Position numbers and translations under genes: made by a program
Shown: positions 9,977-45,558 of the stretch, in pieces
Layout: each line of letters starts with the position of its first letter
Numbering within the stretch: the first letter of the stretch is position 1
The notes under the pieces: model-generated
Database searches by the model: none
Seen by the model: only the letters and a program-made list of their open reading frames with translations
What the model was told of the DNA's origin: nothing
Assembly: GCA_016748015.1 (NCBI GenBank)
Contig: JAAOMT010000295.1
Location: 1,116,001-1,180,000 of the forward strand
Length of the DNA stretch: 64,000 bases
Direction: 5' to 3'
DNA from: Geosiphon pyriformis uo1
Taxonomy: Eukaryota; Fungi; Glomeromycota

Positions 9977-10965
9977 TGTTATAAGTAATTAGTTGGGTAT
10001 AAAAACAAATAACAAACCTATAACTTGGTGCTCAATAGCTTATATGGTGTTGGTAATATCTGAAAATTTTAGAGTCTAAAAGTTTTGATTGAGTTTTTTG
10101 TATAATGAACAGAGATTTAATATTAATATTCTTTGGTAATATTTTTAGTTCTCTCCCTTAACTTGTAAGTTGGTATATGTTTATTGTCTATAGCTTTCCA
10201 AAATATCTATTTTGTTAATTTTTTTCTTAGCTTAATAGTCAGTTCTTTAGTAAGCTATTTCTCAATTCTAAGTGTCTACTTTATTCCTGGGTCTTTTACC
10301 AGTCCTTTTTCTGATGTTAGTACTTTGCATTTTAATCTCTTTAATCATGTAGTAAATCAATGAAACAAACATAAAAGAAAATAAAAAAAATAAAGAAGAA
10401 AATAAAAGAAAAGAAGAAATTAGTATTCCATTAATAACCATAATCAAGAGCAATTGTTTTAGTGTGGTTAAGTATTAAATTCTATCAATATTGGGTGTTA
10501 ATAGAGTAAAGATGATTAATATTTTCTAATCAAACAATGATAACATAGATTCAAGTGGTAATTAATAATTTATTGATATATAATGTGGATTTAAAACTTT
10601 TTTTAACTGTTTTCTTAATTGAAAATTCTAACTGTATATTCTAGCTGTAAACTCTGTCTTTTTTGTTTTTAATACTTTCACTATATATACATAATTGATG
10701 TTCTATGAGATCTCACACATTCATAAACAATGTGCTATAATTTTTCAAGCAATGTTCACATTGTTAAGTAATATGCTCTAATCTACTAATATTGCTTATA
10801 TTGCTGAGCAATATGCCATAATTCACTGATATTGCTCATATTGTTAAGCAATATGCTATAATTTATTAGCAATGTGCTCATGTACTCAGTACTATTCTCT
10901 TATTGGTTTATTTTTTCTATTTGCTTTTCCTATTATTTTTTTTGTACTCTTTTCTATAAGTAATA
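9977..10965 (-). repeat. Element A 3' LTR (U3 array type II)
   Basis: TGTTA...GTAATA termini, adjacent polypurine tract 10966-10981, 40-bp tandem units at ~10715-10880. Confidence 0.9.
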
Positions 10966-10979
10966 TTATCTTCTTTTTT

Positions 10980-11613
10980 TTAATATTAAGCTTTGTCAAA
11001 ATCTTTATTTTGGATTAATTCTGTTACTTTTTTTTCTAACATTATTTGTTCAACTCTGGTTCTTATGTCTTTTATTTGTGAGTTGTTTATTTTTCCTATT
11101 GGTTAATAGTTATTGTTTTCATTTCTGAGTGTAGTAGTATTTTTGGATAATTTTAAAATATGGTGTATAGTCAATAGATTGTTCTAATATAAAGTGATTT
11201 ATTTGTCTTCTTTTTAATAAAATTTTCAATTTGTTGTATTATTTCTTGATTAAATATTCTTTTGGATTTGTTGGTATATAGTTTTTGAATATTTAACTTT
11301 TGTCCCAATTGATAATAATAGTATAGTATTGGAAATTGTTTTGTTCAATGTTTTCAATTTTTTTTGTTAGCTTATCTGTTAGAACAATTATGGGTATTGT
11401 TCTGAAAGTATTTTTCACTTTTTCTATTATTTTATCTGACCAATGTTTTATTGAGTTTATTAATTACTGATATGGTGTATTTCCTGCTTTTTTTTTGGCA
11501 TTCTAATAACAGATTGTTTGGTAATTAATAATAATTTTTATATCCAATTGTTGTTAATTTACAGCTTGAAATAATTGTTAAGCCATTAAGTAGATGTAAT
11601 ATGGAATTTTTAT
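10980..11613 (-). pseudogene. Element A ORF3 (unknown function)
   Basis: Decayed homolog of D ORF3: YYYQLGQKLNIQKLY...NYPKILLHSEMKTITINQ...DFDKA*Y*. Confidence 0.8.
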
Positions 11614-11669
11614 TTTTCTGTTGTTGCTTTTGTCACATATATTATGTTTTTTTATATTATTTTGGTCAA

Positions 11670-13052
11670 TCACTTTAACATGTTTGTGTCAATAATTATA
11701 ATTGTTTTCAGATCTTGTAGGATCTCATTAGATTAGACTAGTATTTATTGTATTCCCAGTTGTAAAATATTACTGGTCAATAATAATAATATATTGTGAT
11801 ATGGTTTCAGTTAATATATATATATTGCTTTAGTTAAAATTTTGTTGTCTTATCTTAGTTTATAAGCTCTATTTTCCAGAATTTCTTCAATGTAAAATAG
11901 TCTATCCTATTTGGAGTCAAATTTTCCACTTTATTGTTTTTTTACTTTGGTACAATATAAGAATACTTTGTCTCCAATTTTGAATTCAACTGGTTTATCT
12001 GATAATTAATTATCATGTTATTTTTTTTGTTTTTCTTGTGACTTTTGAATATTATTAGCTGCTTTTTGTCTTTTGTTTTCTAGAATTTCAATTAGTTTAT
12101 ATGTTTTTTTTAACAATGTTTTTTGTAAATTGGCTTTTGTTATTAGTTCTATTGGATATGTGTTAATGTCTATTTCAACTGGTAATATTGCTGTTCTATT
12201 ATAAACAAGTTCAAATGATATTGTTTGTATGGTATTTTGCTTTATTGTTTAATAAACAAATAGTACTGATAGTATAAACAAGTCCTATTAATCCTGGTTT
12301 TTTTGGCTGATTTTTGTTATTGCTTTACACAATATTTTGTTGAATTTTTTAACTAAGCCATTTGTTTATGGATAATATAATAATAATAATAGTTTCTTAA
12401 TTCCAAATTTTTGACTTAATTCTGTTAATGTTCTGTTTACAAAGTGAATTTCTTAATCTAATAATAATTTTTTTGAACATTTGTGTCAACAAATCAAATT
12501 TTGGTAAACAAATTTGGCTATAGATTCTGTATCTGCTTTTTGAATTGCTTTTACTTCTGGCCATTTAATGAGATAATTCATAGTTACTGCTATATAATAA
12601 TTGTCTTTGTTGATTATTGTTAATAGTTTAACTAAGTCAATTTTAATTCAATCAAATAGTTATCCTACTCTAATTGGTTTTAGTGGTTCATTGGCTCTTG
12701 TTCCTCTACTTTTCTAACAAACATTACAATTTTGAATGTATTGGATAATATTTGGATATATTAATAATTAATAATATATTTTTTTGGTTTTTTTCATGGT
12801 TGTTTCTTTATGAAAATGTCCTGTAGTTGGATTTGAGTGTATATTGTATAGTATTGTTTTTTTCTCTGATTCTGTAATTACTCTGAATGGTTGATCTGAA
12901 TTTTTTCTGTTTTTTTAATATAGTATATTTTGGTAAGTGATAAAATATTTTAATTGTTGTTTTATATTGTTTTGCTTCTTTTGAGATAATTTTTTTTTGA
13001 ACTGTTAGATATTAATATAATATTGAAGTTGTTGATATTTTTGTGTATTCAT
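11670..13052 (-). pseudogene. Element A integrase (separate ORF)
   Basis: ATG at 13052 (MNTQKYQQLQ); HHCC zinc motif and decayed DDE core; many transition-derived stops. Confidence 0.85.
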
Positions 13053-13085
13053 CTTTTGTTATATTTTTGGGTTGAAATGTTTTTT

Positions 13086-16000
13086 TTAGATTTGTCTTAT
13101 TTATAACAAACTATTGGTGTTTTTTTTTTTTATAATGTACAGTATAATTAAATAGTGATAGTTTTATTTTCTATTTTACATGGTAGTCATCTCCAAATTC
13201 TTGTCTCTGAATTGATATCAATTCTTTGTGATTAGTATATATATTAAACTTTTGACTCAAATATTTTTTCATTTAATGACAGCCCAATAAATAGCCAAAT
13301 GTTCTAGTGCTGGAGTTCCATAGTTTTTTTTTGCTGGACTTAAGCTTTGGCTGACATATACTACAAAGCGTTCTCTTCTATTTGGTTTTTTTTAAAACAG
13401 TATGGCTTTTAGTGCTTGACTTAATGTATCAATGGTAATAATAAATAATTTGCTGTGATCTAAATAGATCAATACTGGGACTTAAATAAGTTTTCTTCTT
13501 AAAATATCAAAAGCTTTTTGTTGAGTTTCAGTTTATTTATATCTTATATTCTTTGTTTAAAGCTGGTATAATGGGTTAAACCAGTTTGGAGAAGTTTTGG
13601 ATAAAGCAGTGGTAATATTCAGCAAATTTCAAGAATGCTCTTAATTCTGTGAGATTTGTTGATATTAAAAAGTTCTTGACAATCTCAATCTTATTTGGAT
13701 ATGTTTTAATACTATTTTTGCTTATGACATGTTCTAAGAATTTTAGTTCTGTTTTACCAAATAAGCACTTGTTTGTATTTAGTTTCAATTCAGCTCTTTT
13801 TAATCTTTCAAACACTTGTTGGAAATGATAAAAATGATCATCAAATGTTTTGGAAAACACATTGGTGTTATCTAAGTATATCACTACTGATTTTCATAAT
13901 AGTTCTGTATATACGATTTCTATTAGCCATTAGAATGTGGCTAGAGTATTTATCAATCTGAAAAACATAACATCAAATTCAAAGTTCTTTTTTCTGATTG
14001 TGAATGCTGTTTTTTTTTTGTCAGCTGAATTTATGGCTACTTGCCAATAATTACTATTCAAATTTAATGTAAAAAACCATTTTTTTCTTTCAAAAGCATC
14101 AAATAATTCTTGGATTCATGGAGTTGGATAGCTGTCTCTATAAGTCACACTATTGAGCTTTCTGTAATTCACACAAAAGTGGATCTTTTTATTTTTCTTT
14201 TAGATTAGTATTCCTGGTAATAACCATGGACTTATTAATAGTTGAATTAACTTATTATTCAACATTCTGTTGATTTTTTATTAGATAATCTTATGGCTGG
14301 CTAGTAATATATAGTATGCTTATTGTTTGATTGGCATAGTATTTTCAGTCTTGATTTAATGTTAAATGATGTCAGTTCTGCCAAATTTATTTTTACTGGC
14401 AAAAATATTAGTGAAATTGTTAAGCAACATCTTACACTGCATTTGTTGAAATGAGTCTAAGTTTTCCAAATTTATTTGTTCTAATTGTTCTGATTGGAAC
14501 AAATAACATTTTTTCTGTCCATATATAATTTGTAATATAATATTCATATATTTACACAGTTGTGGAAAATCTGGAATAGTGTTTGATGGTTGATTTTTAA
14601 CTTCAATGCTTAAGTATCTGATAGTAGTTTTATTTAGTATTTTAATTATGTTTTTAGTTGTATTATAGCTGAGAATTTTAATGTGCTTAGAGTTCTTGGC
14701 TGGTATATAAAAATTGGTGATCCCAATCTTCTCTAATTCACAAATAGTTGGTTCTGCTTTAAAAATCTGGAGCTGGTTTCTTATTTTTCTCTCTATTATT
14801 AATATATACTGGTTATATAAAAGAATAGAAACTAATTGATTGGTAAAGATAAATTCTCCTTTATTAATAGATTTTTTTTTTGCCATATTAACTAGTATGT
14901 TTATTTTATCTATTGATCCAAATCCATTTTTTTCTTTGGCTGTAATCTCTAATTTTTTCTTTGTTCTTACTAACACTAACTGAGCTATTTTAATCAAAAA
15001 TAGAAATATTGCTTGTGCTATTTTTTGTTTGGTTTAATAATATATATTTTTTTAACTCATTTTGTAGCATTGCAAAGATATTTTTTATATATTCTGTATC
15101 AATTATTTCTCCTTTTATATTAATCTTTTTTTTCACTAAACTACTCCTAAATGCTAGCTAAACCATAGTTGTTGCTAAAATTTCTAGTACTATTTTCAGA
15201 TTAATGCAGGTGTGCAAATATAGTTCCAATTTAATGATATTTTTTTCTGGATATCTCAAATCAAATTTTATATTGGTATTATGTACTTATTCTGGCATAA
15301 TATCTTTATTATTATTGCTGAATTATTTGAGTTCTTGCTTCTTGAAAAGATCAGAAAGTGTAATATATTGTTCTGAGTTTAAATTGGAGTTTGAATTGTC
15401 ACTGTTATCATTGCTATTTTGAACAGAACTGGAATCATTGTTATTGTTATTGTTGTTAGAATTTGAATTGTGATTGAATGGCAATTCTGATTCCATTTTA
15501 CAGTTGCTGATTGGTTCTTTCTTTTTTGGAATCATATAAATCATGCATAATGGTGGATTATAAATAAAATCACAATCATTACAATATTGAAAGTTATAGA
15601 AAATTAAGCAGTATTGACAAAGTTGAGTATTTAGCTGTTCTAAATACTGTTCTTGTTTTTGTCTGATAAGTGCTAAGTTTTGTTAATGTTTGTGGAATTC
15701 TTCTGGACTTGTTTCAATATCAAAAAATGCATCGGAATTGGGAATAAAAATGATGTTAACTGGTTCAGTAGATTATTTTTTATTTCAAGAATTTCACTAG
15801 ATAAAGCACTTTCTACTTTGGTATTTGCCATTCACCAAATTTTGTCTTCATTGTGTAAGTAACTATTCAAGTGAAAGATTGCTCAATGTCAAATTGCATT
15901 AATGGGTTTTTTATAACTCATCCAGTCACTTATAAAGATCATGTATTAACACAAAACATCATATGTTTCTCCTTATTCAGAAATGTCATTCCATATTTCT

Positions 16001-18932
16001 TTATTAAGTAACTGTTCCCCACAAATAAAACATAATTTGTTGTTTTATTTGTCTTGTTTTTTGAGTAGCCATAGCATTCTTTATGGCATGGCTTGCAGTA
16101 ATAATGAGTTCAGATTCAGTAATTTTTATCAGATAAGATCCAGGCTCTCATAGAGAACAGCTTTTTTTTGTAATTCTTATATCTAAGTGGAATATATAGT
16201 AATTTAGGTCTAATGTTAATTGAGTAGGATTTTTTTCAGCCACTAGTGATTTCAATAGAGATATTGTTTTTTTGTCTTATCTTTTTTTTTCCTTTTTTCT
16301 TGTTATTTTATAAGAGTATTAGTAGTAGTTTATTGTAGTTGGTGTCAGTTCATAATACTTTGTAGGCTTTTCAGGTAAGTTTCTTTTTTTTTCTTTGAAT
16401 TCAATAAGTAGTGTTAATATAGTGGTTTTAAAGTGGCTACAAGTGGCTGGTACTTGAATGTATTGGCCGTTTTGGCTGAGTTGCAATTCTTGGATAGTTC
16501 AATCAAGTATTACATTGGTTTTAAATAACCAATTATTACCAATAAGAGCTTAATATTGCATGGCTTTCATAATAAAGACTTTAATTGGTGCAACAATATT
16601 ATTAACTTCAAATGGAAAGTTGTCAATCTCACCAATAGGCATTTTTGTTACTCTATTAGTAATAATAATCCTAACACTAACAGTGCAATCAACTTGCCAA
16701 TTTAATTGATTTATGAATTGTTGTGTAATAATATTGCTGACTAAACTACTATCAAGAATTAGTTTAATAAGGTGTTTATTAACTTTAGCATCTGTGTACA
16801 TTGTAGTAATGGGTTTAACATTAAGCATGACTCTATTAAATAGAAGTGTCATTGTTGATTTCTCTATTTTGAATGAGAATATAACTGCAAGTGATTTGTT
16901 TTCAGTAATAATTACTGGTAGAATATTGTTAATAAGTAATTAGATTTAATTGGATTCCAATAGATTGAATATTGTGGTTTCTAAAGATACTAAGAAACTT
17001 AAATAGTGTTGGACATTTGGGTTTTGGGCATAACTAGTTCCCAAATTTTGCTGTTAAGATCCAAATTGCTGGGCTGTTAAATTGAGGATTAGTTGATATA
17101 TTACCATTGTCAATTATCAATTTTAGTAGATCTGAGTAGTTCTTAGTCTTTGGTTTCCATTTTAAGATAAGTTCTGTGGTTGACTCTGATTTAGTTGGGA
17201 CTAATAAATAATTTGAGACTGAGGTGGTTGATAAATTACTGGTACTAGTGGTTGATAAATTGGCTGCATTACTTAAGCATAATGCAGTTAATATTGGTAT
17301 TGTCCTGATGATTAATTATTGGCATAGTTTGGAATTTAAAATTCGTAATCAGAATTTTAATATTGATTTTCCAATTATGAGTTATTTTCTTTAAATTAGC
17401 AATTTATTTTTAAATGGCCTTGTCTATTATAGTGATAGCAATTATGCATTTCTATTTGCCATGGTTTATTTGATAATAATGACAAATGTGCTTGTTGCTA
17501 AATACAATTGAAATTTTCTGAATTTTTACAGCATTGTAAAGATTAATATATTGTCTAATTGTTAGCTAAGTATCTTTCTAATTTCTGATTAATTGAATTA
17601 CTAAATTGTTTTAATTTAGAATCCAAGTCAGATGATCTATTCATTACTAAATTAATGGCTTAATTGTGGTTGGCTTCTAGCTTAGCCAATTCAAAATCTT
17701 TGACATGAGTAACAGTATTTTGAAGTGTTTGTGGGTGTATTGGACATATGCATTGTAAGAGACTACTGTATAGGCCATAAATAAATTAATTCAAGATTTG
17801 TGGCACAATAAAGTAGTTCATATTAATTGTTTGTATTTGGTGCAGGTTTCTATGAAAGCATTTTAGATAAGTGGTAATTGCTTCAGTATCTTCTTGCTTA
17901 ATAGTTGTGAAAGTATTTGCTAAGCAATTTATACTATTATTGTTGCTAAAATAGCTTAGAAATTTTAATTTAAATATATTGAAGTCTTGGGATTTTTGGA
18001 TTAGACTTTAATATCATAAGTCAATAATATCTTGAAAAAAGTATGAAATTGCTTATAATGCTTTAGTATTGTCTTATCCATTGGCTGTAATGGTTTTTTT
18101 CACATTATTGAGCCAGACTTATGTATTATTTTTTTCATCAGTGAATTTCTCAAGTTTTCCAATTGGTACATAGACCATTGATAATAATTGTTGTTGTTAA
18201 TATAATTGAAATTGTTGTTGGGCAATTGGTATGACTGGTAATAAATTGATCATGATTACTGGAAATAAGTTTTGAGGAACAATAGGAGCTGGGTTTAAAT
18301 TGTTCTGATTTTGCTGAGTTAAAACAATTGGAATTTGTATTTCTGGGTTTTTTAAGATCAGATTTTGATAATTAAATTCCTAATTTTTGTTCTCTTTTTT
18401 TTTCAAGTTGGTTATTTTCCAAGAACTAACTGTTCCAAAATCGGGTTGAGATGGTAGAAATTGAAATTCTAATTGTATAGGTGATTATGACTTAAATTTT
18501 TCAAAGTAATTATCATAAGTTCTTAATAAATTGGTTTTTTCTTGTTGGCTTTGGAACATAATTCTTGCTGTTGGTGTTTTTATAGTTAATGTGGATATGT
18601 CTGCTGATAGTATGTTGATAATACTTTCTGATGTATGATGGTATAATAGATAAATAGATAAAACTACTTTTGGTTTCTTCCAAATAGATAGTTGTATATT
18701 TCTTGGTGTTTTTGTTAATGTTTGTAATTTTTTTTGTTTTTGTCTGCAAAAATAATAGAAAATTTCTGTCTGGTGTGTTTTTTAATTTTTTTATTGATTT
18801 TTGTAATTATTGAGGCAAACAAATAATTTTGTGAAAGTGTGGTATTCTGAAGTAATTCACTATAAAAGTTGATAAGTACTGCTTTCAGATCTCCTTAATC
18901 TTCTAAGTAGGATTTAATTTTTTTGTTAATGT
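13086..18932 (-). pseudogene. Element A gag-PR-Cys-rich-dUTPase-RT-RNase H polyprotein
   Basis: LILDSS protease (16550-16852), dUTPase ~14905-15320, RT IYLDNTNVFS (13576-13884), RNase H to TAA at 13086-13088. Confidence 0.9.
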
Positions 18933-19782
18933 TGTTATAGATAATTATTTGGAGTATTGATACAAATAACAAATTCATAACTTGGTGTTTAATAAGAAAT
19001 ATAATAGGTAATATCTGAAGATTTTGGTTGAATGTTTTGTATAATGAACAAAGATTCAATAATAGTTTTCAATAGTCTTCTAAAATCACAATTCTGTCAA
19101 TTTTTTTCTTGGCTTGGTGGCTGACAATTTTCTGATAAGTAATTCTTAAATTCAAGTATCTATCCTTTTACAGGAGTCTTTTACTAGACAATTCTTGATG
19201 TTAGTAACTTAGTACTTAATTTTTAATCAATTAGTAAACAAAAAAAAAGAAAAAAAATAAAATTAAATCAAAACATAAAAGAAATAAGCCAATGCAATTT
19301 AAAGATTAGTATTCTGTCAATAGCCATAATCAAAAGCTATTTGTCTAGTATAGTTAAGTATTAGTATTTATCAACATAAATTGTTAATAGAGAAAAAAAT
19401 AGATTGTAATAGTAATAAGTATTTTATTAATATTTAATGTGTTCACTTCAAATCATAAAATATTATCATATAAAGAGATGGATATGGGGTTGAAACTGGA
19501 GATTTTAAGAATTCTTTTCTGCTTCTAATGCTACCATTATATATACATAAATTTTATTATATGAGATTTCTTGAATTCCTCAATTTTCTAGCCAGAAATT
19601 TTGAAATTTCTTTAGAAAAATTCTGAAATTCTGGAATTCTGGAATTCTTTATACTGGAATCCTGTAATTTTGAAATCTTGCAATTCCTTTAAGAGGAATC
19701 TTGGAATTCCATTTTTATTACATCTTATTCTAATTAACTAATTTGTATATTAATATATAATTTCTATATTCTATGAGTAATA
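18933..19782 (-). repeat. Element B 3' LTR (U3 array type I)
   Basis: TGTTATAG...GAGTAATA termini, GGAATCCT/GGAATTCC array ~19562-19712, PPT 19783-19797. Confidence 0.9.
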
Positions 19783-19795: not shown

Positions 19796-20427
19796 TTAAT
19801 ATTGAGCTTCATTGAAATTTCTTATATTTCCTAACTTTTTTTTTTTGATTAACTTCTGAACTTCATTTTTGAGAATTACTTGAATTATTTTAATCTGTAA
19901 TTTTTCAAATTGGACATTGGTTATTTTTTCTAATTGGTTAATAATAACTGTATCTATTACTGGATTAAGTAATATTGCTAGTTAATCTTAAAATTCTGTG
20001 TGTAACTGATATATGGCTTGTGTCTGTGTGAACAGATTGTTTTTTCTCACAATTTGTTCAATTTGTTGTAGTATTGCTGTATTGAATAGTTATTTTGTTT
20101 TGTTAGTGTACAAGTTCTGAATATTTATAATTTGTTCCAAGTAATAAGAACAGAAGTTTTTTATAAATTGTTGTAACCACCAATTTCAAGTTTTTTTAAT
20201 TATTTCTTGGTATGGTACAGCTGTTTTTAATGTTTCCATTAATAATTTTACTTTTGCTATTATCTTGTTTATAGTGTTTTCCAATTTTTTGAATACTTGG
20301 TATTGGATTTTTTTTTATTATCTTTGTATTGAATGATTTGTTAATTAATTGTAATTTCTAAGTTTGTTTGTTAAATTAATTGGAATAATTGTTATGTGAA
20401 TAAATAAATGTTATTAGTAATTTCTAT
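19796..20427 (-). pseudogene. Element B ORF3 (divergent type)
   Basis: YYLEQIINIQNLYTNK...ILQQIEQIV...FNEAQY*; clearly more diverged from A/D ORF3 than those are from each other. Confidence 0.8.
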
Positions 20428-20484
20428 CTTTTTATTGTTGCTTTTGATTGCATTTACTGTGTCTTTATATACTATTCTGTTTAA

Positions 20485-21867
20485 TCAATTTGACATGTTT
20501 GTTTTAATAACTATAATTGGTTTTAGATCTCATGGAATTTTATCCAGTTGGACTAGTATTTGTTGTACTCCCAGTTGTAAAATATTACTAGTGAATAATA
20601 ATATTGTATTGTAATATGTTTTCAGTCAATTTTCATGTGCTGCTTTGGCTAAAATTTTGTTATTCTATCTTAGTTTGTAGACTCTATTTTTTAGAATTTC
20701 TTCTATGTGAAATGGTTTGTCCCATTTGAAGTCAAATTTTTCACTTTATTGTTTTTCTGTTTTGGTACAATATAAGAGTACTTTGTCTTTAATTTTGAAT
20801 TCAACTGGTTTATTTGATAATTGGTTATTATGTTGTTTTTTTTGTTTTTTTTGTAATTTTCGAATGTTATCAGCTGCTCTTTGTCTTTTGTTTTCCAATG
20901 TTTCTATTAGTTTGTATGTTTTTTTTAGCAATATTTTTTGGAAGTTGGTTTCTGTTATTGGTTCAGTTAGATATGTTTTGACTTCTATCTCAACTGGTAA
21001 TGTTATTGTTCTACTATAAACAAGTTCAAATAATGTTGTTTATGTGGTATTTTGCTTCATTTTCTGATAAGCAAATAATTTTGATAATATAAACAAATCT
21101 TATTTGTCCTGGTTTTTTTAACTGATTTTAATAATTGCTTTATATAATGTTTTGTTGAATCTTTTAACTAACTTATTTGTTTATGGATAGTATAGTAATA
21201 ATAATGGTCTTTTGATTCCAAATTTTTGGCTTGATTCTGTTAATGTTCTGTTTACAAAGTAAGTTTTTTAATCTGATAATAATTTTTTTGAACATCCATA
21301 TTGACAAATCAAATCATATTAAATGAATTTGGCTATGAATTTTGCATCTGTTTTTTGAATTGCTTTTACTTCTGGCCATTTAGTAAAATAATTTATGGCT
21401 ACTGCTATATAATAATTGCCTTTGTTGATTATTGTTAATAGTCTAATTAAGTCAATTCTAATTTGATCAAATGGTTGTTCCATTTTAATTGGTCTTAGTG
21501 GTTTACTGGGTCTTGTTTCTCTTTTTCTTTGACAAGCATTACAATTTTGAACGTATTAAATAATGTCTGGATACATTGATAACCAATAATATCTTTTTTT
21601 GGTTTTTTTTATGGTTGTTTCTTTATAAAAATGTTCTGTTGTTGAGTCTAAATGCATGTTGTATAGTATTGTTTCTTTTTTTGGTTCTGTGATTACTCTG
21701 AATGGTTGATCTAAATTTTTTCTGTTTTTCTAATATAGTATATTTTGGCAAGTAATAAAATATTTTGATTGTTGTTTTATGTTGTTTCATTCTTTTTGAG
21801 ATAATTTCTTCTTGAACTACTAAGTATTAATGTAGTATTGGAGTTGTTAATATTTTTGTGTATTCAT
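20485..21867 (-). pseudogene. Element B integrase (separate ORF)
   Basis: ATG at 21867; HHCC and DDE motifs; collinear with A and D. Confidence 0.85.
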
Positions 21868-25810: not shown

Positions 25811-25812
25811 TT

Positions 25813-33868: not shown

Positions 33869-34454
33869 TGTTACCCAAATAGAAAAACTGATCCGAAGTT
33901 ATAAAAAATGTGACCAGAATGTGACATAATACAGAATAGCATTCAATAATATTGGATAATACATTATAACTTATAATAACACAGAATAATGCATTACATG
34001 TGGGATAATACATAATAATACTAGATAACACTAGATAATGTGTTATAACATAGGATAACTAGTAATAACGTAGAAAAATGAAACAATAACAGAAATAACA
34101 AAGCAATAATTAACAATAATGAAACAATTAGAAACAATCCTATAAAACCAAAAAAATGTATAAAAGCAAGTAGTTGTAGAAAGTAGAAATAGACAGACAA
34201 ATAGATATGAACCACTAGACAAAAATCAAATATCTATACCCTTTTATCATTTATTATATTCTATATTCATTTTCTAAAATAAATCAATTATTAAGAAATC
34301 AGAATTATGAATTCATGTTCTCAAACTTTGTGGAATTTACATAAATTAACCATTGTTTCATACCTTTATTCCAGGACAGATGCTCTTAGCATAACTGCCT
34401 TAAACTAATAACAATTTGGACCAATTGCTCTTGATCATGACAATTGACAATACT

Positions 34455-34502
<48 letters not shown>

Positions 34503-34662
34503 CTTTTTATTTTATTTTATTTTATTTTTATTCTTTTGTGGAGTAACAACATAGTAAAATCAATTGTCTGGGAATAGACTTTATGATAGCCTGGTAAAAG
34601 AGAGAAGCTCCCTCTAGGTTTTTGAATATTAATGTTATCTTAATAGCTTATCAGAAGAGTGA
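33869..34662 (+). repeat. Element C 3' LTR, left part
   Basis: Aligns to 24811-25546. Confidence 0.93.
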
Positions 34663-35466
34663 TGTTACAGATAATTATTTGGAGTCTCAAATCAAATAAC
34701 AAATCTGTAACTTGGTGCTCAATATTTTGATAATGCTGGTAATACTGATATGTTGGTTGTATTTAAAAGTTTTTAGAATGGAGTTTTTTGTATAATAGAC
34801 AGAGATTTAATTGTTGTTTTCTCAGTAACCTCTCAGAATCACAATTCTGTCGAATTTTTTTCTCAGCATGGTGGCCAGTAATCTTGGTAGAAATGCTCTT
34901 CTGGTAAGCTATCTGTTAATATATATACTTCTTATACCCTTCCTTAGGGGTCTTTTACCAGGCTATTCTTGATGTTAATAACTTAGCACTTAACTTTTAA
35001 TCAATTAGTAAAACAAAGAAATAAAAGAAAATAAAAGAAAATAAACAAAAAAACAATTACAAGTTAGTATTCTGTCAATAGCTGTGATTAAGAGCTATTG
35101 TTCCAGTATGGTTAAGTATCAATTATTATCAACATGAAGTGTTGATAATGAGAGTGAATTTAAGATAGAGAATAATTATTTATTGATATTTATGGATTGG
35201 AAGGTCACTTAGATAAAATCTAAACTAAGAGGTCTGTTTTTTTTACTTCTAATGCTACCACTATATATACATAATTTGGGTTCTATGAGATCACTTATAT
35301 TCTTGAGCAATATGCCATATTTTCTTGATATTGCTCCATATTGCTGAATGATATGCCATGATTTCTGACATTGCTTTATATTGCTAAGCAATGTGCTCAT
35401 GTGCTAACTACTACTTTCTTATTGGCCTACTATTTTTCTATATCTGTTTTCTTTTTATGAGTAATA
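34663..35466 (-). repeat. Element D 3' LTR (804 bp, U3 array type II)
   Basis: TGTTACAG...GAGTAATA termini; PPT AAAAGGAGGAGATAA at 35467-35481 (minus strand). Confidence 0.95.
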
Positions 35467-35479
35467 TTATCTCCTCCTT

Positions 35480-36115
35480 TTAATATTGAGCTCTATCGAA
35501 ATCTTCATTTTGAATTAATTTTAGTACTTCTTTTTCAAGTATTGTTTATTTGACTCTGTTTCTTATGTCTTCTACTTGTGTATTGTTCATTTTTCCCCAT
35601 TGGTTAATGGTTATGGTTTTTATGTCAGAGTGTAACAGTATTTCTGGATAGTTCCAAAATATGTTGTATAGTCAGTACATTGTTTTAACATATAGTGTTG
35701 AATTTATTTTCTTTCCGATAAATTCTTCAATTTGTTGTATTATGTCTTGGTTGAATATTTTCTTGAATTTGTTGATATACAACTCCTGAATATTCAACTT
35801 TTGACCTAACTGGTAGTAGCAATATGATATTGGAAGTTGTTCTGTCCATTGCTTCCAATTTTTTTTTGTAAGCTCTTCTGTTGGTGCTATAATAGGTATT
35901 TTCTCAAAAGTGTTCTTAACTTTTTCTATTAAGTTATCTGTCCAGTTTTTATTATTCTTTGATGGCTGCTGATATGATGTCTTCTTTGTCTTTCTTTGGG
36001 TGTTTTAATAGCAAATTATTTGGTTGTTAATAACAATTTCCATGTCTAACTGTTGTTGATTTAAGGCCTGGAACAATTGTTGAGCTATAATGTGAATATG
36101 ATCTGGTATTTCCAT
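35480..36115 (-). pseudogene. Element D ORF3
   Basis: ATG 36115 MEIPDHIHIIAQQLFQAL...YCYYQLGQKLNIQELY...EDFDRAQY*. Confidence 0.85.
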
Positions 36116-36167
36116 TTTTCTTGGTTGCTTTTGTCACATGTACTGTGTTTTTATACTTTTTGGTTGT

Positions 36168-37550
36168 TCAATTTGACATGTTTGGTTCAATAACTATGAT
36201 TGGTTCCAGATCTCATGAAATCTCATTTGGTTGAACTAGTATTCTTTGTACTCCCAGTTGTAGAATGTTATTGGTAGATGATGATGTTATCTGATAATAT
36301 GATTTTAGTTGATTACCATATGCTGCTTTGGCTAAAATTTTGTTGTCTCATCTTAATTTATAAGCTCCATTTCTTAGAATTTCTTCTATGTAAAATGGTC
36401 TGTCCTATTTGGGGTCAAATTTTCCACTCCATTGTTTTTATGCTTTGGTACAATGTAATAGTACTTTGTCTCCAATCTTGAATTCAACTGGTTTATCTGG
36501 TAGTTGGTTATTGTGTCATTTTTTTTGCTTTTCTTGTAACTTTTGGATGTTATCAGCTGCTTTTTGTCATCTGTTTTCTAGTGTTTCTATTAAGTTATAT
36601 GTTTTTCTCAACAATGTTTCTTGAAAATTATCTTCTGTTATTGGTTCAGTTGGATATGTATTGACCTTTATCTTAACTGGTAATGTTGTTGTTTTACTGT
36701 ATACTAATTCAAATGGTGTTGCTTGTGTGGTATCCCGCTTTATTGTCTAATAAACAAATAATATTAATAGTATAACCAAATCCCATTTATTCTGGTTTTC
36801 TTAGCTAATTTTGGCTATTGTTTCACACAGTGTCCTGTTGAACTTTTCAACTAACCCATTTATTTGTGGATGATATGGTGATAATAGTGGTCTTTTTATT
36901 CCAAATTTTTGACTTAATTTTGCTAATGTTTTATTTACAAAGTGAGTTTCTTGATTCAATAATAATTCTTTTAGACATCCATGTCAACAGATCAGATCTT
37001 GATAAACAAATTTGGCAATGGATTCTGCATTTGCTCTTTGAATGGCTTTTGCTTCTGGCTATTTAGTAAGATAGTCCATAGCTACTGCAATATATTTGTT
37101 GCCTCTGCTGGTAATTGTTAATAATCCTACTAAGTCAATTCCAATGTAATCGAATGGTTGTCCCACTTTGATTGGTCTCAATGGTTCACTGGATTTTGTT
37201 CCTCTTTTTCACTAACAAACATCACAATTTTAAACATATTGGATGATATTTGGGTACATTAATGGCCAATAGTATTTTTTTCTAGTTCTTTCTATGATTG
37301 CTTCTTTATGAAAATGTCCTGCTGTTGGATCTGAATGCATATTAAACAATATTGTCTCTTTTTCTGGTTCTGTAACTACTCTTGTTGGCTGGTCTGGATT
37401 TCTTCTGTTTTTTCAGTACAGTATATTTTGATAACTGATAAAATATTTTGATTGTTGTTTTATGTTGTTTTGTTCTTTTTGAGATAATTTTTCCTTAAAC
37501 AATTGGGTATTTATATAATGTTGAAGTTGTTGGTGTTTTTGTATATTTAT
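36168..37550 (-). pseudogene. Element D integrase (separate ORF)
   Basis: Start ATA (ATG in A and B); MHSDPTAGHF..CDVC; IGIDLVG; NGLVEKFNRTL; ends DLEPIIVIEPNMSN*. Confidence 0.9.
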
Positions 37551-39409
37551 CTTTTGTTATATTTTTGAGTTGAAATGTTTTTAGATTTGTCTCATTCATG
37601 ACAAACCATCAGCATTTCCATTGGTTTTTTTTTTTTTATAATGTACTGTATAATTGAATGGTAAAAGTTCTATTTTCTATCTGGCATAATGGTCATCTCC
37701 AAATTTTTGCTTTTGGATTGAAATCAATTCTTTGTGATCTGTATATATTTCAAACTTTTGGCTCAAGTATTTTTTTCATTTCATGACTGCCCAATAGATT
37801 GCTAAATATTCTAATGCTGGTGTTTCATAGTTTTTTTTAGCTCAACTTAAGCTTCTATTGGCATAAGCTACTAGATGTTCTCTTCCATCTGGTTTTTTCT
37901 ATGATAGTACTGCTCCCAATGTCTGGCCTGATGCATTGGTGGTGATAATGAATGATTTGTTGTGATCTGAATACATTAACACTAAAGATTGAATAAGCTT
38001 TCTTTTTAGTGTGTCAAATGCTTTTTGCTGAGCTTCTGTCCATTCATACTTTACATTCTTAGTTTGTAAATGATGGAGTGGCTGGGCCAGTTTAGAAAAG
38101 TCTTTGATAAAGTGGTAATAGTACTCTGCGAATTCCAAAAATGCTTTTAGTTCTGTAAGATTGTTTGGTACTGAAAAGTTTTTAACAACTTCAATCTTGT
38201 CTGGGTCTGTTTTGATGTCATCTTTACTCACAACATGTCTCAAGAATTTTAGTTCTGTTTTTCCAAAGAAGCATTTGTTGGCATTTAGTTTCAATCCTGC
38301 CTATTTGAATCTTTCAAATACTTGTTGGAGATGGTGTAAATGATCATCAAATGTTTTTGAAAACATATTGGTATCGTTTAAGTAAACAACTACTGATTTT
38401 CATAGTAATTAGTATAGACAATTTCCATGAGCCATTGAAATATTGCTGGAGCATTTATCAAGCCAAATAGCATGACTTCAAACTCAAAATTTCCTTCTCT
38501 TGTGGTAAATGCTGTTTTCTCTTTGTTGGCTGGGTTCATGGCTACTTGCCAGTAACCATTATCTAAATCCAGTGTTGAAAACCATTTATTTCTTCCAAAA
38601 GCGTCAAATAGTTCTTGAATTTTTGGAGTTGGATAGCTGTCTTCTTTGGTTACTCCATTTAGTTTCCAGTAATCCACACAAAAGCAGATTTTCCCATTTT
38701 TCTTTCAGACTAGTACTACTGGTGATGACCATGGACTCATTAATGGCTGAATTAGTCTGTTATTAAGCATCTGATTGATTTTTTGACAAATAATCTTATG
38801 ACTAGCTGGTGGTACTCTGTATATTCTTTGTTTAATTGGCATTGTATCTTCAGTCTTAATCTGATGTTGGATGATGTTGGTGTGGCCAAATTCATTTTTA
38901 CTAGCAAAGATGTTATTGAAATTGCTGAATAACATCCTTAGTTGCATCTGTTGGAATGGGTCTAGATTCCTTATGTTTATCTGTTCCAATTGTTCTGATT
39001 GGAGCAAATAACATTCACTTTGCCCATAGATGGTTTGTAATATGATGTTCACATATTTGCAAAGCTGTGGAAAATCTGGAATATGGTCTGGTGGTTGATC
39101 CTCAACTTCAGTGATCAAATATCTAATGACAGTTTTTTTTGGTATTTCCATAATATTTTCCATTGTGTTGTAGATGGAAATTTTGATGTTTTTAGGGCTT
39201 TTGGCTGATATGTAGATATTAGTAAGTCCAATCTTTCCTGATTCGCAAATGGTGACTTCTGCTTCAAACAACTGAGCTTGATTCTTTACTTTTCTTTTTA
39301 TGGCTAACATATACTGGTCATATGATAGAATAGAAATTGATTGACGGGTTGAGATAATTTTTCCTTTGTCAATAACCTTTTCCTTTGCCATATTAACTGG
39401 TACATCTAT

Positions 39410-39830
39410 TCTACTTGTTGATCTGAATCCCTATATTCTTCTAGCTGTAATCCCTAACTCTTCCCTGTTTTTTACTAACACTAACTGAGCTATTTTTACC
39501 ATAGACAGGAATATTGCTTGTGCTATCTTTTCATTTAGCTCTATAATATAGATCTTTTCTGAGTTATTTTGTAGTATAGCAATGATATTTTCCACATACC
39601 CTGCATCAACTATTCCTTCTCTGATGTTGATTCTCTTTTTTGCTAAACTACTCCTAGATGCTAATTGAACTATAGTAGTCACTGGAATTTTCAGTGCTAT
39701 TTTAAGATCAATATAGGTGCATGAATATGGTTCCAATTTGATGGCATCTTTTCTTGGATATCTCAGATCAAACCCTGTATCAGTATTATGTGTATGTTCT
39801 GACATGATACCTTTATTATTGTCACTATAC
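39410..39830 (-). pseudogene. dut: Trimeric-family dUTPase domain in element D (also A ~14905-15320, B partial 23735-24014, C ~29430-29845)
   Basis: All five motifs recognisable: TGFDL, SRSSLA, GIVDAGY, EKIAQAIF, RRI*GFRST. Confidence 0.9.
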
Positions 39831-42800
39831 CATTTGAGTTCCTGCTTTTTGGAAAGATTAGAAAGTGCAATGTATATTTCAGAGTTTGAATTGGAGTCTA
39901 AATCATTGATATTTTTGTTGCCATTTTGAATGAAGCTAGAACCGTTATTTTTGTTGTTGTCATTGTCGGAATTTGAATCGGGATTGAAATTTGATTCTGA
40001 TTCTAATGCGCAGCTGCTAATTGGTTTTTCTTCTTCTGAGATTATATAGATCATGTGGATTGGTAGATTGTAATTGAGGTCACACTTATTACAATATTGA
40101 AAGTCACAGGAAATTAAACAATGATCACATAATTGAGTGTTGATTTCTTCCAACCATTGTTCTTGTTTTTCTCTAGTGGGTGCTAATTCCTGATAGTGTT
40201 TGTAGAATTGTTCTGAATCTAGTAGATTTATGGCTGGTTCTGGGTTCCAGTCAAGTTCTATGGGTTCAGGTGAGTCATTTTTAATTGTTTTTATTTCTTC
40301 TGGTAATGCTCCTTCAATTTTGGCAAGTGCTATTTGTCAAATTTCATTATTATTGTATGGACATTCATCCAATTGTTTGACTACATGTCTCCAGACAGCA
40401 TCTATGAGTGTTCTTTTTCTTATCTAATTACTTATGAGAATCATGTATTGACATGATTCGTCACATGTTCTTCCTCTCCCAGGAATGTCATTCCACATTC
40501 CTTTGTCAAGAAGAGTTTTTCCACAAGCCAAACATGGCTCATTATCCCATTTTTCCATTCATTTTGGTCTTTCAAAATGTTTTATAATGCATGAGTGACA
40601 GTAAAACTTAGTTGCCATCTGGTATTTCTTATTGTCACCACAGCAAGCACCTATTGACAACAATTTCTTGCCACAATTGATGCATACCAGTTTTGGACAG
40701 TAATAAGCAGATTGCTGTAGTATAGTATAGAAATTATAAGTGGTGGTACTGGTGGATATTAATTCTTCTTCCTTCCCCTTTCCTTTTTCTTTGGTTTTTT
40801 CTTCCCATTCCTAATCTATTAACTCTTCCTGGTTGTTGTTGGTTCTCCAGGCTTGGTCAGAATTCCAGGTAAGTTTTTCTCTTTTCTTTTCTTTTCCATT
40901 GTTGCCTCACAAAAGTACCAGTAGTAACTTATTGTGGTCTTTGTCAGCCCATGAGACTTGATATGTTTTCCAGATAGGTTTTTTTTCTTCTTTCTCAAAC
41001 TCAATAAGAAGTGCTGGCATGTTGGATGTTTTGAAATGACCACACATGGCTGGTACTTATGTGTGTTGACCATTCTGACTGAGTTGGAGCTCCTGTGTGT
41101 TTTAGTCTAGCATGGCATTTGTTTTAACTAGTCAGTCATTTCCAACTAGTGCTTGGTACTGTGTTGCTTCCATCACTAGGACTTTGATGAGTACTATAAT
41201 GTTGTTGATTTCAATGGGTAAATTGTCAATCATGCCAATTGGAGTTTTGGTTACTCCATTGGCTGTTATAATTCTGGCGCTGACAGCTCGATCAATTCAG
41301 CAACCTAATTGGTCCATGAGTTGTTTTGTGATGATGCTGCCAGCTAATCTACTATCTAGAATCAGTTTGATAGAGTGGCCATTGACTTTGGCATTAGTGT
41401 ACATGGCAGTGATAGGTTTTTCCTCAAAGGTGGCTCCATTAAACAACAATATGGCTGACAGTTCCTTGAGTTCAAATGGGAAGATGGTGTTCAGTAATTC
41501 ATTTTTGGTGATGGTAACTGGTGGAATGTTGCTGGTAAATGTTGGTTGTTGGTTGGTTTCCAGATTATTGGGTTGGACATCTTCTGGAGTAATCAGTAGA
41601 CTTAAATAGTATTAGAAATTTGGGTTTTGGGTGTATCTGGTGCCTGAATTCCATTGTCGAGATCCTGATGGCTGGTTCAAGAAACTGGGGATTAGTTGAT
41701 GGATTACTATCAACAATCTCTAGCTTTGTTGTGTTAGTCTTGGCCTTTGGGTTCTGTTTTGAGGTAAGTTCTGAAATGGTGTTTGATTTTGTTGGGGCTA
41801 ATAAATTACCTAAGGCTACAGCTGATAAATAGGTTGGAACTGCAGTTAATAAATTGATGCTGGAGACTGATAAACTGGAAATGAGTATAATTGCTGCATC
41901 ATTGGGATTTGATACAACAACTGCATTATCAGTAAGTAATTTGGTTGATATAGAGCTGGGTTTGATTGATAATTTGGAATTTGAATCTGGCAATTGGGAT
42001 TTCAATATTGATTTCCCAATTGTTAATTATTTAAACATTGACAGCAATTGATTTGCAAGTGGCCTTGTTTACTACAATAGTGGCAAGCATGTGTTTTCTG
42101 CTGTCACTGTTAATTAATCATGAAAGATGCTGAACATGACTGATTTTGGAATCAATTTCTGTTTCCCTGATTGTTGCGTTGTTAGGGAGATTGGTAAATG
42201 GCTTGATTGTTGTTAGCTAAGTACCCTTCTAATTTTTGATTGAGTGAGTTGCTTAATTGCTTCAGTTTGGAATTCAAGTCAGATGATCCGTTTATCACTA
42301 GGTTACAGCTTGGGCATGGTTGGCTTTGAGTTCGGCTGCTTCAAAATCTCTGGCATTTGTAACTGCAGTTTGAAGGTCTGTTGGATGTATTAGACATATG
42401 TGTTAAAGAATGCTGCTGCACAGGCCTCTAATAAATTGATTTAAAATTTGTGGTACTGTGAAATAATCAGCCTATATGACCTGGATTTGGTGCAGATTTC
42501 TGTGAAAGCATCTTAAGTAAGTAGTAACTGCTTTATTTTCTTCTTGCTTAATAATGGTAAAAGTGTTTGCCAATTGGTTAATGCTATTATTATTACTGAA
42601 GTATCCCAAAAATGCGATTTTAAATTTTTGAAATGTTTGGGGTTTGGCAACTAAGCTTTGATATCACAAGTTGGCGGTATCCTGTAAGAAATAAGGGATG
42701 GCTTGGAGTGCTCTCTAGTCATTCCATCTATTGGCCACAATGGCTTTTTCAATGTTGTTAAGTCATATTTGGGCATCTCAAGTTTTGCTATTGGAGTGTA

Positions 42801-43321
42801 GGCCATTGAATCCAAGTTTGGTTGTTGAAGTTGTTGTTGCAGCTGTTGAAGTGACTGTTGTGGTTGCTGTAGTGGTATTTGTTGTGATTGGATTGGTTTA
42901 GCTGGTAGCTAATCAATAACAATTATTGGAGGTAAGTTTTGCTGATTAATTAATTTGGGTTTTGGATTGTCTTAATTTGGCAGTATTTGAATATTCAAAG
43001 TTCTGATTTCTGGATTTTCCAAGTTTAGATTTTGTTGAGTTTGTAGGTTCAGGATTTCAATTTCTGGGTTTTCTGGGATTGGGTTCTGGTAAGTAAATTC
43101 TTAATCTTCGGATTCTTTTTTTTTTTCTTGTTCTCCTTCCAATTCCGTTATTTCCCAAGAACTTGCAGTTCTAAAATCAGATTGGGGTGGTGGAGATTGA
43201 AGTTCTGATAGCATTGGTGATCATAACTTAAATCCTTCAAAATATGTGCTGTATAGTCCTAAAAGATTTTTTTTCCTTTGTTTACTTTGGAATGGGAATC
43301 ATCTAAATGTTGATGTTACAT

Positions 43322-44176
43322 TGTTACAAGTGATTATTTGGGATCTCAGGTCAAATATCAAACCCATAACTTGGTGCTCAAAAGCTATTCATGTTGTAAA
43401 TAATATCTTTAAGTGGTTGGTATCTGAAGGTTTTCCAAATAAGTCTTTTGTATAATGGACAGAGATTCAATAGTTGTTTTATCCGTAGCTTCCCAGACTC
43501 GCAAGTCTGTCAATTCTTTTCTTAGCTTGGTGGCTGGCAATCCTCTGGTAAGTAATTTATATCTTCAGTACGTATTCTACTCACTTGTAGAAGTCTTTTA
43601 TCAGGCAATCCTTGATGTCAGTAATCAGCACTTTGAATTAATTGGTTAGTGCACGATAACAAAATCAAATAAACCTAAAGAAAATAAAGAAATATAATGA
43701 AATAAGCCAAGGCGATTTGCAAGTTAGTATCCTGTCAATAGCTGTGATTAAGAGCTATTGTTCCAGTGTGGTTAAGTATCAATTACTATCAACATGAAGT
43801 ATTGATAGTGAAAAGTGAATTTGATATAGTGAATAATTATTTATTTGAGGATTGTGATAATTAAGCTAAGAATTCTTGGTGTCCATTCTGTTTTTTCTGC
43901 TTTTAATGCTACTGCTATATATACATATTTGAAATTCCTCAATTCCTCAATTTCTTGCGACAGGAATCCTAGAATTCTTGGAATCCTGCGATTCCTGATG
44001 AGAGGAATCCTGGAATTTTGGAATCCTGTGATTTCTTGTCAGAGAATCCTGAAATTCCTGGAATCCTGCAATTCCTCTGAGAGGAATCTTGGAATTCTAC
44101 ATTTACTATGTTTATATCTAATTGGCTAATATCTACTGACTAATAATACTATATTTCCTATATTCTATGAGTAACA
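43322..44176 (-). mobile_element. Solo LTR E (855 bp, U3 array type I) in gag of D
   Basis: TGTTACA...GAGTAACA termini; flanks acat/atgt; D gag frame rejoins (GVSTSN-V-TSTF) when it is removed. Confidence 0.93.
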
Positions 44177-44695
44177 ATGTTTGATGTGGACACACCTGTT
44201 GATGAGATATTGATGGTGCTTCTGGGTGTATAGTGGTATAATAGGTTGGTTGGTAATTCAACTCTGGTTTTCTTCCAAGTGGATGGTTGTATCCTTTGGA
44301 ATGTCACTGCTGGTGTTTGCAGTTTTTTTTTTTCTTTACTGGTGTTTGTAATTGGATATCTTTGTTAGGTGTGATATTCAATTTCTTTATTAATTTCTGT
44401 GATGATGGATGCAAAATTGTGGTTTGTTGATAGACTAGTGTTTTGAATTAATTCGTTGTAAAAGATTTCCCTTGCTAACTTGGTATTTACTGGTGTCCCT
44501 AACAGATAGACAATTCTCTCATTGATGTAAAAATTGAAGGCTGATTCCACTGATATGTGATTATGGTTTAATCCCAAATGTTAACAGTAGTGTTAAAATA
44601 AGAATTTCACGAATCCTAAATAGTTTGCTCTTATTGATTCTAATTCTGCCACTTTTGGATGGTTGTAGTTGGTGCTAGTTCTCTGTAAAATTATA

Positions 44696-44712
44696 CCTCA
44701 CAGGGAGGACCA
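44696..44712 (-). promoter_or_regulatory. Primer-binding site of D (tRNA not identified)
   Basis: TGGTCCTCCCTGTGAGG, 2 nt after the 5' LTR. Confidence 0.8.
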
Positions 44713-44714
44713 AA

Positions 44715-45558
44715 TGTTACAAATAATTATTTGGAGTCTCAAATCAAATAACAAATTCATAACTTGGTGCTCAATATCTTGATAATGCTAGTAATACTAG
44801 TACATTGGTTGTATCTGAAGGTTTCTAGAATGGAGTTCTTTGTATAATAGACAGAGATTTAATTGTTGTCTTCCCAGTAGTCTTCTGGAATCACAATTCC
44901 ATCGAATTTCTTTCTCAGCATGGTGGCCAGTAATCTTAACAGAGATGTCCTTCTGGTAAGCTATCCATTAATATATATACTTCTTATACTTTTCTTTTGG
45001 GGTCTTTTACCAAGCTATTCTTGACATCAATAACTCAATACTTAACTCTTAATTAATTAGTAAAACAAAAAAATAAAAGAAAATAAAAGAAAATAAACAA
45101 AAAAACAATTGCAAGTTAGTATCCCATCAATAGCTGTGATTAAGAGCTATTGTTCCAGTGTAGTTAAGTATCAATTATTATCAACATGAAATGTTAATAG
45201 TGGAAGTGAATTTGAGATAGAGAATAATTATTTATTGATATTTGTGGATTGGAAGGTTACTTAGATAAAATCTAAACTAAGAGGTCTGTCTTTTCTACTT
45301 TTAATGCTATCACTATATATACATAATTTGGGTTCTATGAGATTGCTCACATTTTCGAGCAATGTGCTATAATTTTTCAAGCAATGTTCACATTGCTGAG
45401 CAATGTGCCATATTTTCTTGACATTGCTCTACATTGCTAAGCAATGTGCCATGATTTTTGATATTGCTCTACATTGTTGAGCAATATGTTTATGTGCTAA
45501 CTACTACTTTCTTATTGGTCTACTATTTTTCTATATCTGTTTTTTTTTATGATTAACA
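44715..45558 (-). repeat. Element D 5' LTR (844 bp)
   Basis: Aligns to 34663-35466 with one extra 40-bp unit. Confidence 0.95.

Follow-up and report, generated by a model that had tools for sequence, protein, structure and literature searches.

A retrotransposon accessory gene beside U3 repeat arrays in Geosiphon pyriformis: likely joint exchange and a candidate role in transactivation

Introduction

Does a gene lying directly before the 3' long terminal repeat (LTR) of a retrotransposon act on the tandem repeats of that LTR, or are the two inherited together as neighbours? The question is raised by a stretch of 64,000 nucleotides from Geosiphon pyriformis uo1 (GenBank assembly GCA_016748015.1, contig JAAOMT010000295.1, forward-strand positions 1,116,001 to 1,180,000), hereafter called the window, in which self-alignment and reading of the sequence resolved a nest of four decayed Ty3/Gypsy elements (A to D), a solo LTR (E) and an LTR fragment (X). 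Each of the four elements carries a third open reading frame (ORF3) between pol and the 3' LTR, and the U3 regions of the LTRs contain tandem arrays of three types. The original prediction for this locus held that ORF3 type and array type co-vary, that both are exchanged as one block independently of integrase, and that ORF3 is an activator or anti-silencing factor specific for its own array.

LTR retrotransposons are usually taken to depend on host factors for their transcription, and self-encoded transactivators mark the complex retroviruses. Here, ORF3 is described as a gene under selection in related elements, together with the discordance between pol and the ORF3/U3 block. We tentatively favour the reading that ORF3 encodes an accessory transactivator, expressed from a promoter of its own and loosely specific for the U3 array; passive travel of ORF3 with the U3 is nearly as likely.

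Results

ORF3 is under purifying selection in related elements

ORF3 spans 10981-11613 in A, 19796-20427 in B and 35480-36115 in D (all minus strand) and 33117-33854 in C (plus strand). The copies of D (211 codons) and C are single frames with 3 and 5 internal stops, respectively. That of A is interrupted by stops and a frameshift (hidden Markov model (HMM) matches at 11009-11554, E 8e-30, and at 11326-11613), and that of B is broken (HMM E 7e-44); the frames of A and C terminate at the polypurine tract (PPT). The three groups that had been proposed were present as types I (B), II (A and D) and III (C), but they are homologous and form one protein family (28-36% identity) rather than separate genes: ORF3 of D is 28% identical to that of C (E 9e-29) and 36% identical to that of B (E 4e-26).

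The named relatives all came from Geosiphon pyriformis (20/20 for ORF3 of C and 5/5 for ORF3 of D), and a further look-up of 20 relatives gave 18 proteins of this species and 2 metagenome proteins. A profile search returned 82 proteins at E<=0.001, and 108 of the 109 database proteins collected were assigned to types (I, 30; II, 19; III, 32; IV, 4; V, 20; two metagenome types, 3). One of them, P0025, is an uninterrupted type II copy with 80% identity to ORF3 of D. The dN/dS ratio was 0.03-0.29 in six of eight pairs of relatives and not computable in the other two, indicating that ORF3 is, as had been proposed, a real gene, intact and under purifying selection in related elements. A shorter ORF3 family (131-167 aa) with a basic core was found in metagenome loci; its alignment with the long family (hhalign 87-90%, E between 1.5e-6 and 4e-6) places the two in register, and both terminate at the PPT.

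No transmembrane stretch was detected in 20 ORF3 proteins, in which the maximum 19-residue hydropathy was 0.32-1.29, and by this measure they are not env-like. The structure model of P0076 (mean predicted local distance difference test (pLDDT) score 81) has a helical core at 80-220. Foldseek found no match at E<=0.001 in PDB or BFVD for models of pLDDT 55 and 81, which does not show a new fold, and the best score in a wide fold search was Z 4.7. Searches by sequence returned only importin-5 in PDB (E 0.12) and, in PHROGs, a best match of E 0.0012 whose function is unknown there; no ORF3 match was obtained by tblastn against phages, and no relative in the viral contigs scanned. In the ESM Atlas, both queries had as their top match an unnamed cluster of 190 aa from Mucoromycota (0.94), below the level of reliable recognition. 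No description of the family was found in the literature, among largely non-subscription papers and outside supplements, Repbase and Dfam. Judged by these searches, ORF3 is an uncharacterised accessory protein without a match to a known family.

Two likenesses were tried and gained no support. A ParB/KorB-like fold was not supported, the ParB-family rows (Z 3.4-4.0, root-mean-square deviation 3.1-5.1, 59-97 residues aligned) standing among unrelated ones. A likeness to DUF1016_N reached E 0.037 for 1/14 proteins, and hhalign gave 1.4% against a 7-sequence profile, below the block-shuffled controls.

Three types of U3 array lie before the LTR TATA box

Three arrays had been described between the CCAAT and TATA boxes of the LTRs. 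Their places and units were confirmed, but C has its CCAAT box in reverse orientation and that of B has decayed. Type I consists of 8-9-mers within a 39-40-bp unit (Tandem Repeats Finder (TRF) 19595-19709 and 43962-44098) and occurs in the 3' LTR of B (18933-19782; array about 19570-19712) and in the solo LTR E (43322-44176; about 43930-44100), both on the minus strand. The assignment of X to the same type also held: this LTR fragment (about 8880-9454, minus strand), 67-68% identical to the LTRs of A and B by blastn, retains a heavily decayed 8-bp repeat at 9269-9299 (TRF) that fits type I. Type II has a 40-bp unit (TRF 10756-10863, 24125-24276 and 45338-45485) and is found, all on the minus strand, in the 3' LTR of A (9977-10965; about 10715-10885, between CCAAT at 10902 and TATA), in the remnant of the A 5' LTR, which is U3 only (24020-24374; about 24085-24295), and in the 3' LTR (34663-35466; about 35290-35405) and 5' LTR (44715-45558; about 45335-45495) of D. 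Type III, with a 10-bp phase, is confined to C (plus strand), where it lies at about 24905-25000 in the 5' LTR (24811-25812), with 5 RGATAA boxes, and at about 33950-34070 in the first part of the 3' LTR (33871-34662).

Periodicity was scored as shuffle z over the first 260 nt of each LTR. At lag 40, z was 14.0 in the 5' and 5.9 in the 3' LTR of A, and the 5' LTR of D was significant at lag 40-41; at lag 8, z was 6.3 in E and 4.5 in B; at lag 10, it was 5.6-6.4 in C. No significant array periodicity was seen by this measure in the 3' LTR of D or in X. The proposed reconstruction of a CpG in the type II motif found support at one site (35349-35350, CA in D versus TG in most other contigs), and in the gene model P0084 the translation of a type II array reads S-D-V, consistent with a retained CpG.

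By eye and post hoc, a GAT/ATC core was seen in all three arrays, as GATT, GATG (CpG restored) and GATA (43930-44100, 45335-45495 and 33950-34070, respectively), held in types I and II as inverted half-sites; seen in the same way, type I units resemble 8-9-mers of the metagenome relatives L018 and L045.

ORF3 and U3 were likely exchanged together at the end of pol

A and B both exceed D in AT content, and their likeness might be convergent decay; transversions alone were therefore counted. On these counts, A groups with B in pol and with D in ORF3 and U3. The numbers of sites at which A, B or D was the odd one out were 60, 43 and 100 in pol and 20, 102 and 26 in spacer plus ORF3 (chi-square p 3e-18). 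U3 tracks ORF3 (9, 32 and 15), and R/U5 lies outside the exchanged block (37, 30 and 30). The three integrase strings quoted in the original prediction were present at 12595 (A), 21410 (B) and 37092 (D).

Along D, the best change point was about 36106, at the start of ORF3 (36115) and 60-65 nt past the pol stop (36168-36170), so that the spacer of D between pol stop and ORF3 start (36106-36170, minus strand) is the exchange zone. Twenty-seven contigs track the integrase end of D to 36158 and then diverge into sequence that by eye resembles the spacer of B. The ORF3-to-pol transversion ratio was about 1.5 for A-D and about 5-6 for pairs with B; because it is raised only in pairs with B, we infer that the B lineage is the recombinant, its ORF3 being discordant with its A-like pol. 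The proposed exchange of an ORF3-PPT-U3 block near the pol stop is upheld; the discordance persists without transitions, and the switch falls within a spacer of about 65 nt.

The proposed co-variation is upheld in the discordance among A, B and D, but the window records only one exchange, in the B lineage. Co-variation beyond whole-element descent reduces to this single event, because E and X lack ORF3 (no HMM match upstream of either in an ORF3 profile search of the window) and C is divergent throughout, with 17-25% transversions in pol. Elsewhere, two metagenome relatives (L006 and L047) are 97-100% identical downstream of a point some 270 nt short of the pol stop but 86-91% identical upstream of it, the ORF3-U3 block moving apart from the integrase core. 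Among the 6/159 loose-end contig rows listed over ORF3-PPT-U3, which come from short contigs, no clear type switch at the PPT was found. The comparison of regions suggests a likely swap between families in which ORF3 and the adjoining repeat-rich promoter region moved as one.

Most ORF3-bearing relatives carry short-period arrays

A degenerate integrase motif fetched 120 metagenome loci. Twenty-nine were labelled as ORF3-bearing: 27 by the short-family profile, one (L018) by the long-family profile, and one (L045) by its position together with a weak match (E 0.004). L029 (E 6e-5) was kept as ORF3-less, as the PPT follows the pol stop there. Arrays were compared in the 38/120 loci with a detectable PPT and >=230 nt of LTR, from which four near-copies and three ambiguous loci (L003, z 3.0; L005; L077) were dropped. 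A dense U3 array with a period of 7-12 bp (z>=3) was present in 9/10 ORF3-bearing versus 1/21 ORF3-less families (Fisher 5e-6, uncorrected for descent), L018 being at the threshold. The period was 9 in eight of these families, and in several the phase was unbroken up to the TATA box.

An integrase tree of 37 rows, built by quick search after setting aside 9 near-copies and 12 loci whose ORF3 state was unknown, required 2 changes of ORF3 state and contained two ORF3-less clades at 98 and 99 SH-aLRT support; in a tree of 61 rows made earlier, under looser labels, the number was 4, of which at least 2 were forced. The association of ORF3 with short-period arrays is strong in count and weak in independence, with 1-2 independent contrasts. 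Reading the 9-bp arrays as 3-residue coding repeats is unlikely: frames are open in some loci, unconserved, and interrupted in L076.

Other cargo was seen right after pol in two metagenome loci, a NUDIX protein in L033 (1945-2886; E 1e-10) and an Mrr-type restriction-endonuclease domain in L067 (822-1460; E 5e-8), and cysteine-rich ORFs lie further downstream of pol in L052, L074 and L077.

A TATA-like box precedes ORF3 in the window

A strict TATA sequence lies 40-46 nt upstream of the ORF3 start in all four window elements (3-7% each by shuffle): at 11649-11656 in A (minus strand, 43 nt upstream), 20464-20471 in B (minus, 44 nt), 33071-33078 in C (plus, 46 nt) and 36148-36155 in D (minus). 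Near the pol stop, TATA was found in 13/29 ORF3-bearing versus 3/44 ORF3-less loci, near-copies included, over a pol background of 4.9% of 547 windows.

In many short-type metagenome loci the ORF3 start overlaps the pol stop (-4 in L008, L020 and L080; -11 in L006 and L007; -26 to -28 in L009 and L040), and most short-type elements with such an overlap have no TATA box. The overlap hints at translational coupling as a second route of ORF3 expression.

Structure and decay of the nest

The window is AT-rich eukaryotic DNA. The order zinc knuckle, protease, dUTPase, reverse transcriptase (RT), RNase H, integrase (Pfam and motifs in A, C and D) is that of Ty3/Gypsy elements. A dUTPase lies between protease and RT in all four elements (39437-39826 in D, PF00692, E 4e-13; 14935-15319 in A; 23757-24014 in B; 29436-29811 in C). 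Element D extends over 34663-45558 (minus strand); its gag-pol (36171-43320) contains all of these domains (Pfam PF00692, PF00078, PF17919; motifs), and its primer-binding site (PBS) lies at about 44697-44714. D splits the 3' LTR of C, which resumes past it at 45564-45825 (plus strand; 85% identical to the end of the C 5' LTR). The decayed gag-pol of A (11736-18930, minus strand) retains protease, dUTPase, RT, RNase H and integrase (Pfam and self-alignment; dUTPase by tblastn). B is nested inside the gag start of A, and its pol (20500-24015, minus strand) is 5'-truncated within dUTPase.

Paired LTRs with TG...CA ends are present in A, C and D, and 4-bp target-site duplications (TSDs) in A, C, D and E; all differences within TSD pairs are transitions, with one between the 5' remnant and the 3' end of A. 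PBS-like sites beginning TGG follow the 5' LTRs of C and D, and purine tracts precede all four 3' LTRs.

All copies are dead, with observed/expected CpG of 0.03-0.12 in the elements versus about 1 in host genes. Transitions and transversions between paired LTRs numbered 90:3 in D, 41:1 in A and 128:10 in C (segments paired, about: D 34663-35468/44714-45559; A 10640-10965/24020-24374; C 24813-25812/33871-34662+45566-45825), and transitions occurred at similar rates in CA, CC and CT contexts. This bias looks like the work of an all-context C-to-T mutator acting on repeats, and dating LTRs by total divergence would be badly inflated by it. As far as reported for Gigaspora margarita and Mucoromycotina, signatures of repeat-induced point mutation were undetected (10.1101/2021.03.30.436303).

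B (from 18933) and E (43322-44176), both type I and in the same orientation, landed within about 300 nt of the same site, the gag start of a type II element (A and D, respectively), and D is inserted into the LTR of C; an insertion preference is possible. Beside the end of X and a long poly-A, a telomere-like 10-bp repeat occurs at 8815-8853 in about 4 copies (3 exact; 0.01 expected). A further repeat, probably a non-LTR element, is present as a decayed pair in inverted orientation at 46270-52370 and 59657-64000; the first copy is similar to that part of Geosiphon gene models which bears RNase H. Of two host genes, one (54113-55252, plus strand) encodes a protein of glycoside hydrolase family 17 whose N-terminus includes a hydrophobic stretch, and the other (56702-58445, minus strand) an F-box-like protein.

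Discussion

In the reading that we favour, an internal TATA promoter dedicated to ORF3 would drive its expression, and the soluble, predicted-helical protein would act in trans by binding the array before the LTR TATA box, as foamy-virus Tas does, and so raise transcription of the element. Its specificity would probably be loose, depending on a short core or on spacing, and not a one-to-one code. The analogy gains two independent hints from the TATA-like box before ORF3 and from the association of ORF3 with short-period arrays in relatives. The 3' end of the genomic RNA is the source of U3 in both LTRs, and a template switch near the pol stop between co-packaged RNAs would therefore move ORF3, PPT and U3 jointly onto a new pol; such an exchange most likely happened once, in the B lineage.

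Several observations weigh against this reading. ORF3 has no significant match in Pfam, PHROGs, PDB or viral structures that would link it to a DNA-binding domain. The four TATA boxes of the window are homologous and not independent; in curated metagenome starts, TATA was found at -40 to -65 in only 8/21, and it was not found in that interval in L018 and L045, the closest relatives. A single ORF3 clade is not rejected by the approximately unbiased (AU) test (p 0.18), and the association with arrays may represent 1-2 events. The type II arrays of A and D have no 7-12-bp signal (z 0-1.3), and type III contains 5 RGATAA boxes versus 0.37 expected. Lastly, P0084 is a candidate ORF3/U3 mismatch, although nesting may explain it. 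It reads, in order, an ORF3 end placed in the B clade (100% SH-aLRT, although just 27% of its alignment columns are filled), a type II array (61% to the U3 of D across 57 residues) and gag. Among 109 models it is the sole clear U3 match, a weak match in P0049 (E 0.001) lying in a pol-derived stretch.

The strict ORF3-type/array-type code of the original prediction is not supported. ORF3-less relatives have family-specific U3 repeats of their own, mostly of longer period, P0084 is a candidate mismatch, and divergent proteins share a unit. Short ORF3s 27-37% identical to that of L010 have nearly the same AT-rich 9-bp unit, so the array need not change with an ORF3 divergence as deep as that between the window types. 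A cognate activator code, with each ORF3 paired to its own array, is unlikely.

Hitchhiking is nearly as likely as an accessory transactivator. Here, the arrays would be fast-turnover enhancers for host factors, and ORF3 would serve replication in some other way and travel with U3 by adjacency, which alone can explain the single exchange observed. It fits the repeats of ORF3-less U3s, which include a 49-bp unit x3 in L001 (z 11), a 31-bp unit in L075 (z 5), a 7/14-bp unit in L078 (z 5-7), motifs x5 in L074 and L022, and CRE-like repeats in L004. A ACTGTGCC-like motif occurs in U3s of both ORF3-bearing and ORF3-less elements, and type III is a run of RGATAA boxes, which we take to be GATA-factor sites. 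Variation of U3 between subfamilies is, as far as described, general (PMC10794571). What hitchhiking does not predict is the split of short-period arrays between ORF3-bearing and ORF3-less families, or a 9-bp phase kept across ORF3s of such low identity.

An action like that of VANC, in which ORF3, bound to the array of its own element, would clear DNA methylation or keep it off and co-evolve with that array in an arms race, is improbable. It is in keeping with at least 5 ORF3 subtypes coexisting among Geosiphon proteins, with the extreme C-to-T pressure on the elements, and with VANC targets, reported as short motifs amplified as tandem repeats (PMC5735166). The anti-silencing role originally proposed was not supported, as decay is no weaker in the arrays than elsewhere in the LTR: between LTR pairs, 56/136 C/G sites had changed in arrays versus 112/320 in the rest (p 0.24), each array holding 0-2 CpG, and observed/expected CpG in pol was 0.64 in 16 ORF3-bearing versus 0.57 in 30 ORF3-less elements (p 0.16). 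These decay tests of array protection are indirect, made on dead copies and of low power.

A regulator at the RNA level, like Rev or CERV, would bind the array as RNA and control export, stability or packaging. The 3' U3 lies in the 3' untranslated end of every element transcript, with the array directly after the ORF3 stop; the basic core of the short family would suit such a role, and CERV is described as a precedent in an LTR retrotransposon (PMC10309623). The arrays, however, end in phase at the LTR TATA box, where promoter elements are expected, and the inverted half-sites seen by eye in types I and II are typical of double-stranded DNA sites; this reading is quite improbable. That the A/B/D pattern is convergent C-to-T decay and ORF3 a dead integrase tail, as the AT-richness of A and B and the dominance of transitions in all comparisons might suggest, is largely refuted and hardly credible, since the discordance holds on transversions alone and ORF3, which starts separately from the frame of pol, is under selection where relatives are intact.

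The candidate transactivator can be set beside several known systems, none of which the ORF3 family matches by sequence. Sense ORFs between pol and the 3' LTR (aORF-3S) are known in Ty3/Gypsy elements (Metaviridae) and are described as mostly env-like, with transmembrane stretches (PMC7264820). The elements here share the gag-protease-RT-RNase H-integrase order and an extra sense ORF after pol in most copies of the family, whereas their ORF3 is soluble, 131-244 aa long, without a Pfam match, and fungal. In foamy virus, Tas (Bel-1) is reported to be driven by an internal promoter and then to activate U3 (PMC7390438). ORF3 resembles it as a regulatory-looking gene right before the 3' LTR with its own TATA-like box and U3 repeats as candidate targets; the elements, however, have no env, no similarity was found by sequence in Pfam or by fold among viral structures at E<=0.001, and the likeness is architectural only.

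VANC of Arabidopsis VANDAL elements is described as acting by local hypomethylation at amplified motifs (PMC5735166). A diversified element-encoded protein beside family-specific tandem repeats of short motifs, in three array types here, is common to both; VANDALs, however, are Mutator-like DNA transposons and the hosts here LTR retrotransposons, with no sign of local protection from C-to-T change and no family match. Regulatory accessory ORFs have also been proposed or shown in LTR retrotransposons, as reported for TRP28 of Retand (PMC11963269) and CERV of Caenorhabditis elegans Cer1 (PMC10309623). Retand likewise has tandem arrays near its accessory ORF, but TRP28 is antisense and the arrays are described in the pol-LTR spacer, not in U3; CERV shares the regulatory role but is reported to come from spliced RNA and to act on export.

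It is doubtful that a fungal lineage independently evolved a foamy-virus-like two-promoter circuit in full, with an internally promoted transactivator of new helical fold, a phased binding array in U3, at least 5 co-diversifying specificities per genome and cassette swaps onto a shared pol. Intact natural copies and natural ORF3-less sister clades make the question of ORF3 directly testable. If the specificity is true, the family would offer a set of compact orthogonal activator-array pairs; if ORF3 hitchhikes, it is still an unannotated protein family explaining >100 'hypothetical' gene models of Geosiphon. A striking LTR expansion has been reported in Geosiphonaceae and Ambisporaceae (PMC11952901), and ORF3 may bear on the growth of these genomes.

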